The notes under the pieces were generated by a model. It saw only the letters and a list, made by a program, of their open reading frames with translations. It had not been told where the DNA came from and made no database searches. Positions 463 through 7,210 of a DNA stretch of 7,210 nucleotides are shown piece after piece. The position numbers were made by a program, and so were the translations under genes. Within the stretch, counting starts at the first letter, position 1, and every line of letters begins with the position of its first letter. Origin of the DNA: a virus (Duplodnaviria > Heunggongvirae > Uroviricota > Caudoviricetes). The DNA is taken from positions 1 through 7,210 of IMG/VR virus record IMGVR_UViG_2548877009_000013; one strand, 5' to 3'.

Positions 463-762
463 ATGAAGCTTAAATATTCTGGCTTAACTGCCAGTGGCAA
501 CACTCACCCTAAATTTACGCGCGGTGATATTTACCGCGACCAGTACGGCGGTACGGTAATGATTAAGGGCGTGGCGGGACGGTGCGTAACTTACCGCCGT
601 GAAGGTTACGAATATGATTGCGTGATGCCTGTTTATCAGTTCCGGCGTGATTTTTCTCTGGTACAGACCGCGCCGCATAACGTGCCCACCAGCAACGCCA
701 GAGCACGGGCAAACATCCAGAAGCTGAAAACAATGATTAACGGATTCAGGGGTAAAAAATGA
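463..762 (+). CDS. Hypothetical small protein (99 aa), translationally coupled to the downstream replication gene
   Basis: GGAGAA Shine-Dalgarno about 9 nt upstream of ATG 463; its stop overlaps the start of the next gene (ATGA at 759-762). Confidence 0.55.
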   Translation: MKLKYSGLTASGNTHPKFTRGDIYRDQYGGTVMIKGVAGRCVTYRREGYEYDCVMPVYQFRRDFSLVQTAPHNVPTSNARARANIQKLKTMINGFRGKK

Positions 763-2903
763 AACTGGCACCGAACGTAAAACAGCAGTCACGCGGCATA
801 AAACACAAAGAAACAGAAGTCATTATTTTTGCGGGTAGTGATGCCTGGTCACACGCAAAACAATGGCAGGAACATGACGCGCGTATGGCCGGAGATAATG
901 AGCCTCCTGTGTGGCTTGGGGAGCAGCAGTTATCCGAACTGGATAAGCTGCAAATTGTGCCGGAAGGCAGAAAATCAGTACGCATATTCAGGGCCGGACA
1001 TCTTGAGCCAGTAATGATCAAGGCGATTGGTCAGAAACTGGCGGCGGCAGGCGTACAGGATGCAAATTTTTACCCTGAGGGAATGCACGTTCAGAAGGTG
1101 GAGAACTGGCGCGAATATCTGGCCCGTGAGCGGCAGAATCTTTCTGATGGTCTGGTTATTGAGCTTCCGGTAAAGAAAAAAGATACCGGAAGTCATAGCG
1201 ATGACGAATTAAAGCCACGCGTTGAAAGTCGCGCCGATGGTGTTTTCTGGGTAACGCCCAAAGTGGATAAGCAGTCAGGCGAAATTATCCGGCCTGAGAC
1301 GTGGTTATGTTCTCCGCTTGAACTACTGGGAACGGGGACGATCGGTAAAGAGCATTACCGCGTGATGCGCTGGAAAAAAACCGCAAACCATGAAGTCATC
1401 ACAATGGCGATCCCGTGTGGTGGTATCGGCGACCGTGACGGCTGGCGGTTACTTAAAGATCACGGGCTGAACGTGACAACCAACGGCAAATACAGGGCAA
1501 TCCTGGCGGACTGGATGCAGTTAAGCGGAAGCCATGAGGAATGGCAGTTAAGCACAACAACGGGCTGGCATTTTGGCGCGTACATCATGCCGGACGGTTC
1601 GATCATTGGTGATTCTGAAAAACCGATCCTGTTTACCGGAAAAAGCGCCGCGATTAACGGTTATTCCGTGGCGGGTACGGCGGAGGGCTGGCGCGAGAGT
1701 GTGGCGCGACTGGCTGGCGGTAATGCCTCAATGATGCTGGGTGTGGCAACGTCACTGGCAGCGCCTTTAATTGGCCTTGTGGGTGCTGACGGCTTCGGGG
1801 TGCATCTTTTCGAACAGTCATCGGCAGGTAAGACCACCACGCAGAACATCGCATCAAGTTTATGGGGAGAGCCGGACGCGCAGCGGCTGACCTGGTACGG
1901 CACGGCGTTAGGTATTGCCAATGAGGCCGAGGCCCATAATGACGGGCTTTTACCACTGGATGAGATAGGCCAGGCCGGAAATGCGCGGGAAGTGTCAACG
2001 TCTGCTTATACGCTGTTTAACGGTTCAGGGAAATTACAGGGGGCGAAGGATGGCGGCAACAGGGAGATCAAACACTGGCGAACGGTGGCAATCAGCACCG
2101 GAGAAATGGACGTTGAGACGTTCCTCAAAACGGAGGGGATAAAGGTTAAGGCAGGACAGCTTGTCCGTCTGCTTAACGTGCCGATGGAAAAAGCCACGCA
2201 GTTTCACGAATACAGCACCGGAAAGGCGCACGCAGACGCGTTAAAAGATGCCTGGACAGAAAATCACGGGGCGGCGGGGCGTGAGTGGGTTAAATGGCTG
2301 GCAGACCACCAGCAGGAGACAAAGGACACGGTAAGGGCATGCCGTGAACGGTGGCGCAACCTGATACCGGAGAGCTACGGCGAGCAGGTCCACCGCGTGG
2401 GTGAGCGTTTCGCCATACTGGAGGCCGCACTTGTGCTTTCCGGTCATGTGACTGGCTGGGATGAGCAGGAATGCCGTGATGCCATTCAGCATAATTTTAA
2501 TGCCTGGGTGAAAGAGTTCGGTACGGGCAACAGGGAACACAGGCAGATTATTGAACAGGCTGAGGCGTTTCTTGCAGCCTATGGCCTGAGCAGGTTCGCC
2601 CCTGTCAATTATGACCCTGCCAGCCTGCCGATTTCAGAACTGTACGGCTACAGGGAAAGCGACGGGCGTTATGACGAGCCTGTTTTGTTTTACGTGCTGC
2701 CGGAGCCGTTTAGCTCACATGTGGCGAAGGGATTTAACAAGGATGCCGTAGCAAAGACCCTTCATGAAGCCGGAATGCTGAGAAAACCAGCCAGCGGGCG
2801 GGGATGGCAAATCAGGACACCACGACTAAAACACCTGAAAGGGGCGCGGCTAAGAGTGTATGGCCTTTTGCTGACGCAGGACCACGATGCTGAAAATGAT
2901 TAA
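759..2903 (+). CDS. Replication protein, primase/helicase-like P-loop NTPase (714 aa)
   Basis: Long ORF with a Walker A-like motif (SSAGKTTT) and a Walker B-like hydrophobic stretch ending in DE (LLPLDEIG) about 70 aa downstream; immediately followed by an iteron array, as in satellite primase-ori arrangements such as P4 alpha/ori. Exact family not determinable without a profile search. Confidence 0.7.
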   Translation: MKLAPNVKQQSRGIKHKETEVIIFAGSDAWSHAKQWQEHDARMAGDNEPPVWLGEQQLSELDKLQIVPEGRKSVRIFRAGHLEPVMIKAIGQKLAAAGVQDANFYPEGMHVQKVENWREYLARERQNLSDGLVIELPVKKKDTGSHSDDELKPRVESRADGVFWVTPKVDKQSGEIIRPETWLCSPLELLGTGTIGKEHYRVMRWKKTANHEVITMAIPCGGIGDRDGWRLLKDHGLNVTTNGKYRAILADWMQLSGSHEEWQLSTTTGWHFGAYIMPDGSIIGDSEKPILFTGKSAAINGYSVAGTAEGWRESVARLAGGNASMMLGVATSLAAPLIGLVGADGFGVHLFEQSSAGKTTTQNIASSLWGEPDAQRLTWYGTALGIANEAEAHNDGLLPLDEIGQAGNAREVSTSAYTLFNGSGKLQGAKDGGNREIKHWRTVAISTGEMDVETFLKTEGIKVKAGQLVRLLNVPMEKATQFHEYSTGKAHADALKDAWTENHGAAGREWVKWLADHQQETKDTVRACRERWRNLIPESYGEQVHRVGERFAILEAALVLSGHVTGWDEQECRDAIQHNFNAWVKEFGTGNREHRQIIEQAEAFLAAYGLSRFAPVNYDPASLPISELYGYRESDGRYDEPVLFYVLPEPFSSHVAKGFNKDAVAKTLHEAGMLRKPASGRGWQIRTPRLKHLKGARLRVYGLLLTQDHDAEND

Positions 2904-2928
2904 TCTCGCGTGTAGGAGGTAAAAATAT

Positions 2929-3218
2929 GTTGTCCCAGTCGTCCCAGTAAGCAACAAGCAATCGTAACACATTGAATTACATAAATTTCACTTACAAAAA
3001 GTGGGACAACAGCGGGACAACATTCAGGCATTTTGGGACAACATAGCGGCATTTTGGGACGACACGACACGTATTTTTTACCGTGCTGGAGGGTGGGACA
3101 ACACAAAAACCCTCATGTCGTCCCAAAATCGCCTTATGTCGTCCCACTTTGTGGAGTATGTTTTTAATAAAATCAACAGGTTAACATTAAGTGGGACAAC
3201 CGGGACAACTGGGACGAC
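2929..3218. repeat. Iteron array, putative origin of replication
   Basis: Twelve copies of the 9-bp motif YGGGACRAC. Eight are on the + strand (3002-3010, 3013-3021, 3034-3042, 3055-3063, 3094-3102 and three contiguous copies at 3192-3218) and four are inverted (2929-2937, 2938-2946, 3117-3125, 3138-3146). They are interspersed with AT-rich stretches (3147-3190, 3219-3257) and sit directly downstream of the replication gene. Confidence 0.7.
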
Positions 3219-3257
3219 GTGTTTTGTATATATATACGAAAAATCGAGATCTGAACT

Positions 3258-3998: not shown

Positions 3999-4205
3999 AT
4001 GGCTGAAGAGAAAAAAGGCGGTGTTTCGGTGTACATAAGCCCCGACATCGTGAAGGCGCTCAAGGAACGCCACCAGCAGAACGTAAAAGCAGGCATTGCG
4101 GCAGGACTTGATCCGCTGGCGATGGTTGAGCCGTCAACAGGCTGGCAGGTACGCGCCTATTTACGCGCGGCGCTGGGTATGAATCAGGTTCACGGGGGTG
4201 AATAA
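3999..4205 (+). CDS. Hypothetical small protein (68 aa), first gene of the capsid operon
   Basis: AGAGGA upstream of ATG 3999; stop overlaps the capsid gene start (TAATG at 4203-4207). The N-terminus (VSVYISPDIVKALKERH) has a strand-helix pattern compatible with a ribbon-helix-helix fold, which is speculative. Confidence 0.5.
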   Translation: MAEEKKGGVSVYISPDIVKALKERHQQNVKAGIAAGLDPLAMVEPSTGWQVRAYLRAALGMNQVHGGE

Positions 4206-5260
4206 TGACAGTAAAAGCAATGGCACTTAACACTAACCAGCTTTTTGCGTACCTGAATCGCGGGGATATTGCGGAATTTAAATTCAGTCCGCTGTTTACC
4301 ACGCTGTTTTTCCCGAACGTGGCGACATTCAGCACCCAAAACATCATGCTGGATACCCTGGACATTGAAGAAGTCACCATGTCGGCGTTTTGTTCGCCTA
4401 TGGTTGGCAGCCAGGTACAGCGCGATAAAGGGTACGAAACCAGCACAATTAAACCTGGCTACATGAAGCCAAAGCACGAAATCGATCCAACGAAAACCAT
4501 CATGCGCATGGCTGGAGAAGATCCAGCACAGCTTAACGACCCTACCTACCGCCGTATGCGCCTGATTACTGGCAACATGCGCCGCCAGATAAACGCCATT
4601 AAAGCGCGCGTGGAATGGCTGGCGGTGAATGCGATAACGACCGGAAAAAACATCATTGAGGGCGAAGGCATAGAACGCTATGAAATAGACTGGAAGATCC
4701 CAAGTAAAAATATCGCCAGACAGGGACCGGGTAAAAAGTGGTCAGAGGCAGATAAGGAAACACACGATCCAATCTATGACATCGAGCTTTATGCTGATCA
4801 GGCTGGTTGCCCCGCAAACGTCATGATTATGGGCGTTGAGGTATGGCGCACGTTACGCAGCTTTAAAAAATTCCGTGAGCTGTACGATCTTTCCCGTGGT
4901 TCAGAATCCGCCGCAGAACTGGCCTGTAAAAACCTGGGCGAAGTGGTGAGCTTTAAAGGCTATCTGGGCGATATTGCCCTTATCGTCTATTCCGGCAAAT
5001 ACGCCGACAGCGACGGCACAGAAAAATATTTCCTTGAGCCTGATTTACTGGTCCTGGGCAACACCAACAACAAAGGGCTGGTGGCCTATGGTGCGATTAT
5101 GGATCAGGAAGCGGTAAGAACAGGCGCAACGCAAAACATGTACTACCCGAAAAACTGGATTGAGGACGGCGATCCGGCGATTGAGTACGTGCAGACGCAC
5201 AGCGCACCGCAGCCGGTTCCGGCAGATATTCGCAAATTTGTTACCGTCAAAATTGCTTAA
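4205..5260 (+). CDS. Major capsid protein, phage lambda gpE-like (351 aa)
   Basis: Several blocks match lambda gpE as recalled: EFKFSPLF vs KFKFDPLF, PGYMKPKHE vs PGYVKPKHE, EDPAQLNDPTYRRMR vs EDPQNLADPAYRRRR, LGDIALIVYSGKY vs YGDVAIVVYSGQY, YPKNW and GDPA and SAP near the C-terminus. G-rich RBS upstream of ATG 4205. Confidence 0.9.
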   Translation: MTVKAMALNTNQLFAYLNRGDIAEFKFSPLFTTLFFPNVATFSTQNIMLDTLDIEEVTMSAFCSPMVGSQVQRDKGYETSTIKPGYMKPKHEIDPTKTIMRMAGEDPAQLNDPTYRRMRLITGNMRRQINAIKARVEWLAVNAITTGKNIIEGEGIERYEIDWKIPSKNIARQGPGKKWSEADKETHDPIYDIELYADQAGCPANVMIMGVEVWRTLRSFKKFRELYDLSRGSESAAELACKNLGEVVSFKGYLGDIALIVYSGKYADSDGTEKYFLEPDLLVLGNTNNKGLVAYGAIMDQEAVRTGATQNMYYPKNWIEDGDPAIEYVQTHSAPQPVPADIRKFVTVKIA

Positions 5261-5271
5261 CGGGGGATTCT

Positions 5272-5607
5272 ATGGACACTCCATACATTGAGTTATTTGC
5301 AGGTAGTCAGCAGGTATCCACGACGCTGGTACATTTTGCCGCTGATGCTGGCGTTATTCAGGAATTTACCCCGCTGATGCTGGCGGGCAATGGCGAGTTT
5401 AAGCCGTGGGATGGTCAGGAATCTGGCAAGGCTGTTTATCTGACCTCGTACCCCGTGGACACGTCAAAGCAGAAATCAGCACAGTGTTACAAGACGGGGA
5501 TATTTAATATCGCCGCCGTAAACTGGCCTGAGAGCGCCGACACTGACGCGAAAAAATGCGCCGCCTTTGCGGGTTCTGGCGTATCCGTTCAGCCGCTGGC
5601 GCGATAA
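5272..5607 (+). CDS. Head decoration protein, phage lambda gpD-like (111 aa)
   Basis: Size and motifs match lambda gpD as recalled: TPLML followed by WDG, YKTGIF vs YKSGTF, WPE with acidic residues, AAFAGSGVS vs TAFAGTAIS. GGGGGA RBS upstream; adjacent to the capsid gene. Confidence 0.85.
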   Translation: MDTPYIELFAGSQQVSTTLVHFAADAGVIQEFTPLMLAGNGEFKPWDGQESGKAVYLTSYPVDTSKQKSAQCYKTGIFNIAAVNWPESADTDAKKCAAFAGSGVSVQPLAR

Positions 5608-6062: not shown

Positions 6063-6127
6063 CGGGTCCTTCCTGGAATTATGGCCCGTTACGGGGCGGC
6101 GACCTCGCGCGTTTTCGCTATTTATGA
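6063..6127 (+). other. Lambda-type cohesive end site (cos), left copy in + orientation
   Basis: Contains GTTACG then GGGCGGCGACCT (6094-6105) then CGCGCGTTTTCGCTATTTATGA. This matches the 12-nt cohesive end and flanks of the lambda cosN region as recalled (lambda: GTTACG, GGGCGGCGACCT, CGCGGGTTTTCGCTATTTATGA). It sits directly upstream of a Nu1-like gene, as in lambda. Confidence 0.75.
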
Positions 6128-6194
6128 CGTTTTTCCGTGAAGGTGACACCACCACCACTTGATTAACATTTAACCAGTCAATTGAGGTAATATT

Positions 6195-6635
6195 ATGATT
6201 GATAAGGATTGTTTTGTAAGTCAGCAGGAAATAGCTCAACATTTCAAGGTAAACAGAACCACTATTCGCGCATGGACCAAACAGGGGATGCCCTATCTTA
6301 ATGCGGATCGCGGAAAGTCTGGAGGTTATCACATCGGGCATACATTGCTTTGGTCTTCAGGTAAAAGCCATCTTGAGACCATCGGATATCACGTAGAAAC
6401 CAGTGCGCTGGAAAAAATTATGGTTGCCAGGCTGCTTTTATCTGAGCGTGACGAGTACTCCAGTGAAGAAACAGAACATCGCTTTGATGAAGGTTTGCAG
6501 ATTTACGGCTATTCACCGGAAGATGTGAGCAAGGCACGAAATAAAATGGCTGGCTTTCTGGCTGGGTGGCGTCATGCCGTAAGCGTTCGCCGTACCAGCA
6601 TGGAGCAATCAGTCGTTACAGAACAGCAAAGTTAA
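6195..6635 (+). CDS. Terminase small subunit-like protein with a Nu1-type winged-HTH N-terminus (146 aa)
   Basis: N-terminus VSQQEIAQHFKVNRTTIRAWTKQGMPYL parallels lambda Nu1 VNKKQLADIFGASIRTIQNWQEQGMPVL as recalled; GAGG RBS 8 nt upstream of ATG 6195; located immediately after cos. The C-terminal two thirds show no recognisable similarity to Nu1. Confidence 0.75.
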   Translation: MIDKDCFVSQQEIAQHFKVNRTTIRAWTKQGMPYLNADRGKSGGYHIGHTLLWSSGKSHLETIGYHVETSALEKIMVARLLLSERDEYSSEETEHRFDEGLQIYGYSPEDVSKARNKMAGFLAGWRHAVSVRRTSMEQSVVTEQQS

Positions 6636-6665
6636 AAATCACTTTCTGTTACGCCATCAAATACG

Positions 6666-6815
6666 CAATACAACAACCACGTATTTTTTTAAAACTATTT
6701 GATTCAATTAGCATTTTTTTATTTTCAGCATCAAAAAAACACTATCAGGTTGTTGTATTGCTCTCTATTTTTACTTAGTTATCAAATAGATATGACAAAC
6801 AATTAAACAACAACC
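6666..6815. repeat. AT-rich segment with three copies of ACAACAACC (two direct, one inverted), candidate cosB-like binding sites
   Basis: ACAACAACC at 6670-6678 and 6807-6815; inverted GGTTGTTGT at 6748-6756. The outer and middle copies form a 13-bp perfect inverted repeat (CAATACAACAACC at 6666-6678 vs GGTTGTTGTATTG at 6748-6760). No ORF of note in this segment. Confidence 0.4.
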
Positions 6816-6830
6816 TACCTCTAAAAAAGC

Positions 6831-6895
6831 TCATAAATAGCGAAAAACCGCGAGGTCGCCGCCCCGTAACGGGCCATAATTCCAGGAAGGACCCG
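6831..6895 (-). other. Second lambda-type cos site, inverted copy
   Basis: Reverse complement of 6831-6895 equals 6063-6127 except for 2 mismatches (63 of 65 identical); contains the complement of GGGCGGCGACCT at 6853-6864. Confidence 0.7.
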
Positions 6896-6928: not shown

Positions 6929-7210
6929 ATGACAGAAGCCGAACTACTGCGATTAATCCGTCGCGTTGCCGGAATCAGCCAGCAGGCTGACGAACAGGCC
7001 ACGCAGCCGGACAGCGTGACCGCCGAAAATTATGCGCGTGTGGTTGCTGAGGTGATGCGCCGTGACGGTATTGAGCTTAACGGCGTGGATATGCGCGACA
7101 TACGGATCCGCGTTCTGGAAATGCTGGCCTACAATCGCCGCGTTGAACTGTATCGGGAGAAAGAAAAAATTACGTACCACTGGAAGAAGCCGGAGCGGTT
7201 ACGGCGATAA
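6929..7210 (+). CDS. Hypothetical protein (93 aa)
   Basis: ATG 6929 preceded by GGGGG; the stop codon falls exactly at the window end; no recognisable motif. Confidence 0.45.
   Translation: MTEAELLRLIRRVAGISQQADEQATQPDSVTAENYARVVAEVMRRDGIELNGVDMRDIRIRVLEMLAYNRRVELYREKEKITYHWKKPERLRR

Follow-up and report, generated by a model that had tools for sequence, protein, structure and literature searches.

Why should a phage satellite carry two cos sites? In the E. coli phage-inducible chromosomal island (PICI) EcCICFT073, the first of these, cos1, is needed for transfer by lambda and phi80 (PMC6092414, PMC6739421), and experiments have established that its cosB is read by a heterodimer of RppA and TerS (PMC6739421). 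The second, cos2, works on a plasmid when cloned from CFT073, with no stimulation by RppA (PMC6739421, PMC6092414), and its deletion from the island raised transfer by both lambda and phi80 (PMC6092414). When the cosBs were swapped, only that of cos1 responded to RppA (PMC6739421). The cosB of cos2 has been described only as "completely divergent" (Fillol-Salom et al. 2018, 2019; PMC6092414, PMC6739421), and the reason why some islands have two cos sites was left open by these authors (PMC6092414, PMC6739421).

The 7210-bp stretch of DNA analysed here (the window) covers the right part of an EcCICFT073-like PICI, an E. coli satellite. A 96.5% identical copy is found in E. coli MEI4BO-21, where the island spans 11 kb, includes an integrase and an HTH regulator and lies between roxA and phoQ, and CFT073 shows the same layout at the same chromosomal place. 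Of the island backbone, the window itself holds the DUF927 primase, the integrase, HTH regulator and chromosomal insertion being seen in the near-identical island, and its rpp gene has cos1 directly upstream and a second, inverted cos downstream. The product of this 146-aa gene, which an earlier note on this DNA had called Nu1-like, matches RppC (PDB 6HLK, E=7e-32), and the gene aligns to CFT073 c1503/rppA; it encodes Rpp and no terminase small subunit. Because the gene is rpp, aligned to the published RppA, the left cos, which has the lambda orientation, can be equated with the published cos1 and the inverted copy with the published cos2. That the latter is a genuine inverted copy, as the earlier note had it, is borne out by the two cos arms, which form a 72-nt inverted repeat with 94% complementarity.

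Elsewhere in the window, GGGACAAC/GTCCCA repeats are densely packed on both strands directly after the primase gene (2925-3235) and probably represent the iterons of the island replication origin. E-like and D-like head genes are present, although the literature has the island packaged in full-size helper capsids. The 93-aa ORF at the right end has no Pfam match; a few RefSeq genomes annotate it as "phage head-tail connector protein", and it is conserved between the window and CFT073.

The segment between rpp and the inverted cos is indeed AT-rich (27-28% GC), and on the cosB side of the inverted cos it contains three exact copies of ACAACAACC, a 9-mer with no other exact copy in the 7210-bp window (Table 1). 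Counted from the cos2 cohesive end, the boxes run direct-inverted-direct, and the three-copy pattern that had been noticed at roughly 40, 100 and 180 bp holds good when measured. In dinucleotide-preserving shuffles of the segment 6640-6830, a 9-mer with at least four G/C that occurs at least three times on either strand turned up in 3 of 20,000. Between the first two boxes lies a candidate I1, an IHF-like site that matches WATCAANNNNTTR at 12 of 13 positions, matches of this grade numbering 9 in the window against 6.3 expected. Prediction of IHF sites in the AT-rich tract, as the earlier note had suggested, puts a match at the position of phage 21 I1, and matches of its grade are not enriched. 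The TTGATAA core of the site is kept in E. coli type-A cosBs (those with the boxes of the window), and the site is absent from an Aeromonadaceae copy (L204). A second 12/13 match to the IHF consensus, AATCAAATAGTTT, is seen between R2 and R1 (window 6692-6704, minus strand; bp 161-173).

Table 1. Features of the window and of the phage cosBs set beside it. For cos2, bp 1 is the first base of the cohesive end (window 6864, minus strand).
Feature	Position in window	Strand	bp	Basis or remark
DUF927 primase	759-2903			
PerC-like gene	between iteron-like repeat field and head genes			
Lambda E-like major capsid gene	4205-5260			PF03864
D-like decoration gene	5272-5607			PF02924
cos1: cosQ-cosN and start of Rpp-type cosB	6063..6134	+		alignment with CFT073 cos1
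rpp (RppA-like), 146 aa	6195..6635	+		between two convergent cos sites
AT-rich spacer	between rpp stop and inverted cos copy			
Whole putative cosB of cos2 (type A, N15/Monarch type)	6665..6852	-		homology to L228
R1-like box GGTTGTTGT	6670..6678	-	187-195	exact match (ACAACAACC on +)
R2-like box, inverted relative to R3	6748..6756	+	109-117	exact match (ACAACAACC on -)
Candidate I1, IHF-like site TATCAAATAGATA	6780..6792	+	73-85	between R3 and R2
R3-like box GGTTGTTGT	6807..6815	-	50-58	exact match (ACAACAACC on +)
cos2: inverted cosQ-cosN arm	6824..6895	-		inverted repeat and alignment to published CFT073 cos2
cosN cohesive-end sequence GGGCGGCGACCT of cos2	6853..6864	-		read from sequence
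93-aa ORF	6929-7210			just outside cosQ of cos2
Monarch-type prophage (L228), R3			51-59	
Monarch-type prophage (L228), R2			110-118	
Monarch-type prophage (L228), R1			188-196	
Monarch-type prophage (L228), terS start			229	
Phage 21, R3			50-65	annotated, M81255
Phage 21, I1			72-86	annotated, M81255
Phage 21, R2			107-122	annotated, M81255
Phage 21, R1			150-165	M81255
Phage 21, gp1 start			189	M81255

The repeats were also compared with the cosBs of candidate helpers, as the earlier note had advised, and here the array finds its counterpart, matching both N15 R3 and the cosB of Monarch-type prophages. Window 6665-6870 aligns to positions 8950-9156 of one such prophage (L228) with 81.5% identity over 211 nt (E=1.6e-48), the homology being bounded by R1 and by the cos arm. 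In this lambda-like prophage, cosB and terS sit between the lysis genes and a run of terL, portal, S49 protease and D-like/E-like head genes. The box GGTTGTTGT is also found at bp 50-58 of phage N15, that is, with the same sequence in the same register, and the somewhat longer GGTTGTTGTT at bp 50-59 of cos2 is the core of N15 R3, including the critical bases GTTGTT at 54-59. N15 R3 has been defined by block mutations as bp 48-59, GAGGTTGTTGTT (Feiss et al. 2015, PMC4669245), and scrambling GTTGTT at bp 54-59 lowered the yield ~100-fold (PMC4669245). The "Monarch" N15-like prophages have the TerS recognition helix of N15 together with a tripartite cosB that includes an IHF site (PMC4669245).

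It is this kind of cosB that cos2 appears to reproduce, with its GGTTGTTGTT at bp 50-59, its three boxes, its inverted R2 and its candidate IHF site between R3 and R2. The likeness to the Monarch group is drawn from the published description and from N15 R3, the Monarch sequence itself appearing only in a figure. Taken together, the identity with N15 R3 and the homology to the L228-type cosB indicate that cos2 would carry a Monarch-type cosB of N15 specificity. We consider it very nearly certain, judging from sequence, that the array is a homologue of the N15/Monarch-type cosB, and the earlier proposal of a cosB-like R3-I1-R2-R1 layout seems well founded. The minus strand of window 6665-6895 would then constitute a complete phage-type cos, with cosQ, cosN and a tripartite cosB made up of R3, an IHF-like site, R2 and R1.

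There are differences from the phage sites as well. The cos2 site lies in a satellite and not in a phage. Compared with the E. coli prophage copies, it keeps the spacing and 27 of 27 box positions, but identity over the 119 positions from R3 to R1 is only 59-67%. Above all, cos2 has no terS after it; the next feature is the antisense 3' end of rpp, whose stop codon falls at bp 230-232 (window 6633-6635). Since terS starts at bp 229 in the L228 prophage, the rpp stop stands at the terS start position, and the captured module would end precisely where terS begins.

The cosBs of lambda and phage 21 are built like that of cos2, with R3 and R2 equally far from cosN, and differ from it in box sequence (CGTTTCC in lambda); R1 of cos2 also lies ~37 bp further out than that of phage 21 (bp 187 versus bp 150). 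Phage 21, on the premise that its R boxes contain CATGTCGG, was considered as the source of the cassette found at cos2 of CFT073 and was rejected, the annotated entry M81255 showing other boxes and another gp1; the true match is PhiR12_1. Neither lambda nor 21 packages N15 DNA. N15-specific DNA packaging per induced lysogen was 3.5 with an N15-specific helper versus 2.9e-4 with a lambda helper (PMC4669245).

If the boxes of cos2 are of N15 type, one would like to know which terminase small subunits go with them in phages. A scan of IMG/VR for a cosN followed by GGTTGTTGT and ACAACAACC at the distances seen in the window returned 83 loci: 63 have a ribosome-binding site and a TerS after the array, 17 are islands, and 3 are too short to classify. 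The protein that follows, TerS-A, is a 168-aa member of the Nu1 family (Pfam PF07471, E=1.4e-21) with the N-terminus MAFLLNKSDMASSIGISVQAFDKWGV and the N15-like winged-helix domain pattern MA.LLNKSDMASS.GISVQAFDKWGV. Over its first 45 residues, N15 gp1 hardly differs from the prophage TerS-A, and by this DNA-binding domain N15 is the closest isolated phage; the phage collection held no record in which a type-A cosB and the E. coli TerS-A occur together. No solved structure for TerS-A was detectable by sequence. Because R3 and R2 were required exactly in the scan, their conservation in these loci is by construction, and bias-free evidence comes only from R1, from the spacing and from loci anchored on the protein. 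R1, which lay outside the search pattern, is present in every full-length type-A locus.

A search with the TerS protein instead of DNA as query, limited to one genome per species, gave 26 full-length TerS-A homologues at 34-100% identity, from Escherichia, Trabulsiella, Pluralibacter, Erwinia, Aeromonas, Pseudomonas, Halomonas and others. A short way upstream of terS, all 26 have GTTGTTGTT, including those with another cosN. In most of these loci the box is single, as in N15, and the Aeromonadaceae copy has all three at the same distances. The N15-type DNA-binding domain (ISVQAFDKWG) is in this way linked to a type-A site in 63 of 63 pattern-selected and 26 of 26 protein-selected loci from phage relatives. 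In complete E. coli genomes, the cosB-plus-terS segment of the Monarch-type prophages is present in 246-257 of 5426.

A scan for the other cassette type, type B, with its AACCGGACAT boxes, yielded more than 120 loci, 106 of which precede a second protein, TerS-B. The N-terminal domain of TerS-B (VATQTEVARHLSLTDRQLRRL...) is unrelated to that of TerS-A, and the C-terminal halves of the two are nearly identical (71% identity over residues 25-168). Among pattern-selected loci, type A goes with the N15-like TerS in 63 of 63 and type B with the different DNA-binding domain in 106 of 106, no classified locus mixing the cosB type of one with the TerS type of the other. TerS-A and TerS-B represent a natural domain swap that tracks cosB type. 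With this linkage, and with cos1 read by Rpp-TerS (PMC6739421), the earlier suggestion that the two cos sites of the window are served by different DNA-binding specificities gains considerable credence. In two loci, one from Shigella flexneri (L205) and one from E. coli ECMA0423 (L206), a terS of the TerS-B lineage lacks the N-terminal domain, and the sequence upstream of it resembles the end of an IS transposase gene.

Whatever reads cos2 does not seem to be made by the island. A tblastn search with the DNA-binding domains of TerS-A and TerS-B found no match in the window or in one whole island, and a reader encoded there was set aside as a candidate. With no TerS-A domain in the island, a helper phage would have to supply the reader, and since Rpp, for its part, is nearly unchanged between islands whose cassettes are unrelated, an island-encoded reader is unlikely.

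The comparison with CFT073 shows how sharply bounded these cassettes are. Its cos2 belongs to the same island family and shares with that of the window its position downstream of rpp, its inversion and a near-identical cosQ-cosN arm (PMC6092414, PMC6739421). The two islands share ~97% identity over cos1, rpp, the cos2 arm and the gene after it, whereas the ~190 bp from the rpp stop codon to cos2 are unrelated: in place of the N15/Monarch boxes of the window, CFT073 has three AACCGGACAT boxes, a type B cassette. From cosN to the third box, the CFT073 cassette (L002:9036-9184) is nearly identical to the cosB of PhiR12_1 (L255), a phage that encodes TerS-B, and the match is lost exactly at the start of the phage terS leader. 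PhiR12-like phages are, on account of this match, the obvious candidate helpers for the published cos2; the literature on PhiR phages yielded nothing relevant. Sequence comparison identifies the cosB of cos2 as a cassette exchanged with phages, of type A in the window and of type B in CFT073.

Islands other than these two follow suit. Loci retrieved with the Rpp protein alone split into 9 with type A and 13 with type B. Where both flanks are available, the order is cos1-rpp-A-cos2, as in the window, in 8 loci and cos1-rpp-B-cos2, as in CFT073, in 5. A further 6 have the order cos-B...A-cos and 3 the order cos-A...B-cos, with rpp reduced in both groups to a 3' fragment and the type A and type B cosBs facing each other ~535 bp apart. 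In all four architectures the two cos sites are convergent. The two groups with the rpp fragment (L010, L025, L050, L065, L066 and L084 versus L005, L008 and L019; for example, L005:4100-4800) are inversion isomers of the segment flanked by the two cos sites, implying that the inverted cos arms have recombined with each other. The RppB islands (L248, L249 and L250; rpp at 1501-1938) have a different cosN, yet carry type-A boxes at cos2; here the cohesive ends of cos1 and cos2 differ within one island (CCGCGGGGCGGGAGCGGCGC versus CCGGGGGTAGCCATACGCGC, for example). In one of the three, L250, two boxes are degenerate, and the array is not always maintained. An anecdotal observation, made from IMG/VR genome identifiers, is that genome 2585427729 contains a type-A island and a type-A prophage together.

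Does cos2, then, do anything for the island? A skeptic might hold that it is a relic, left over with its cosB from recombination that the island once underwent with a lambda-like prophage and without any role in packaging. Such recombination would be easy, as the cos arms are common to many prophages, and it is certainly awkward for a packaging role that CFT073 lost no transfer when cos2 was deleted, cos1 being the required site. L250 has two decayed boxes, and the CFT073 cassette, being nearly identical to PhiR12_1, was captured recently. The window cassette, on the other hand, is old (59-67% identity outside the boxes), and all 27 box positions and their spacing have nonetheless stayed intact. 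Neutral debris would also hardly account for two alternative, complete cosB cassettes at the same site, for the persistence of the two-cos layout in RppA and RppB islands with different cosN, or for the retention, even doubling, of phage-type cosBs in islands that have no intact rpp. We regard a relic as unlikely. That cos2, on amplified island DNA, acts mainly as a decoy, titrating or misdirecting a Monarch-type terminase in the service of interference instead of transfer, is quite improbable to our minds, although cos2 reproduces the phage recognition site faithfully, interference with helper packaging is a known trait of PICIs, and packaging from one of two convergent cos sites runs into the other. 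With cosQ and cosN intact and in the right order for both initiation and termination, binding at cos2 should yield packaged DNA; the decoy and packaging roles are, in any case, compatible with each other.

One might also read the spacer as regulatory DNA or RNA: a promoter or operator, an rpp terminator or a small RNA, in which the repeats would be operators for an island regulator or for Rpp. The spacer is AT-rich and intergenic and has inverted repeats, and RNA folding allows R1 and R2 to pair in a 14-bp stem (z=-2.5). A promoter and terminator scan, however, found no promoter-like or terminator-like site in 6640-6830, an Rfam search gave no match near any family's threshold, and together with the folding these gave nothing to rival the reading as cosB. 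None of the island's proteins looks like the TerS-A DNA-binding domain, Rpp hardly differs between the window and CFT073 despite unrelated cassettes, and RppA acted only on the cosB of cos1 in the published swap (PMC6739421). The phage copies of the array, moreover, sit between cosN and terS at fixed cosB distances. A regulatory role strikes us as highly improbable. That cos2 actually serves the island in packaging is, from this sequence evidence, the reading we favor, with a probability of about 0.65.

How might such a site work? We infer that cos2 is a captured, swappable phage-type cos that would be read directly by the TerS of a cognate helper, cos1 being read by Rpp-TerS. When a Monarch-type, lambda-like helper grows in the cell, its Nu1-family TerS, with its N15-like winged-helix domain, would dock as a dimer on R3 and R2 of cos2, probably across a bend in the AT-rich spacer that could be IHF-induced or intrinsic, and would place TerL to nick cosN. 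Packaging would then go leftward through rpp and the remaining island concatemer and would stop at the next cos2, encountered from the cosQ side. Termination depends on cos orientation, as is established for lambda, and cos1 would be crossed in the non-terminating orientation. No Rpp would be required on this route, so that the island would have two packaging entry points with two DNA-binding specificities. Lambda and phi80 do not have the cognate TerS, and the finding of no benefit from cos2 in the published tests fits the proposed route. Rpp might bind TerS-A too and block the use of cos2.

The proposed cos2 has partial precedents. In carrying the helper's own packaging site, it shares the strategy of cos-type SaPIs such as SaPIbov5, from which it differs in sitting beside a second, Rpp-dependent cos in the same island, with which it converges. 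Such SaPIs have been mentioned before (PMC6092414). The cos1 site of Rpp PICIs (for which an R3-PICI has been proposed; Murialdo and Feiss 2022, PMC9026076) likewise uses the island's cosQ/cosN and the packaging machinery, but lacks repeated R boxes and has the Rpp-TerS heterodimer as its reader, whereas cos2 presents three phage-type boxes. The cosB class and the existence of cos2 are already known; the searchable literature gave no report of a cos2 whose cosB is tripartite, of phage type and defined specificity, and exchanged as a cassette.

The evidence suggests that the second packaging entry point is kept for a different class of helper phage. In its fullest form, this reading would have two routes of piracy embodied in one convergent pair of sites, with Rpp re-targeting TerS at cos1 and cos2 mimicking the cosB of the helper, and the cos2 cassette setting which helper classes can mobilise the island without Rpp; we would put the chance that these parts hold jointly at about even. 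If true, the two-route reading would answer why some PICIs have two cos sites and would make helper range predictable from sequence. Viewed as a cosB of defined phage specificity, cos2 turns an open question into one that is testable with existing phages, lambda N15hy4 and PhiR12-like phages among them. It would explain why cos2 has seemed dispensable with lambda and phi80, and it would let the cassette predict the helper range of these virulence-associated islands.
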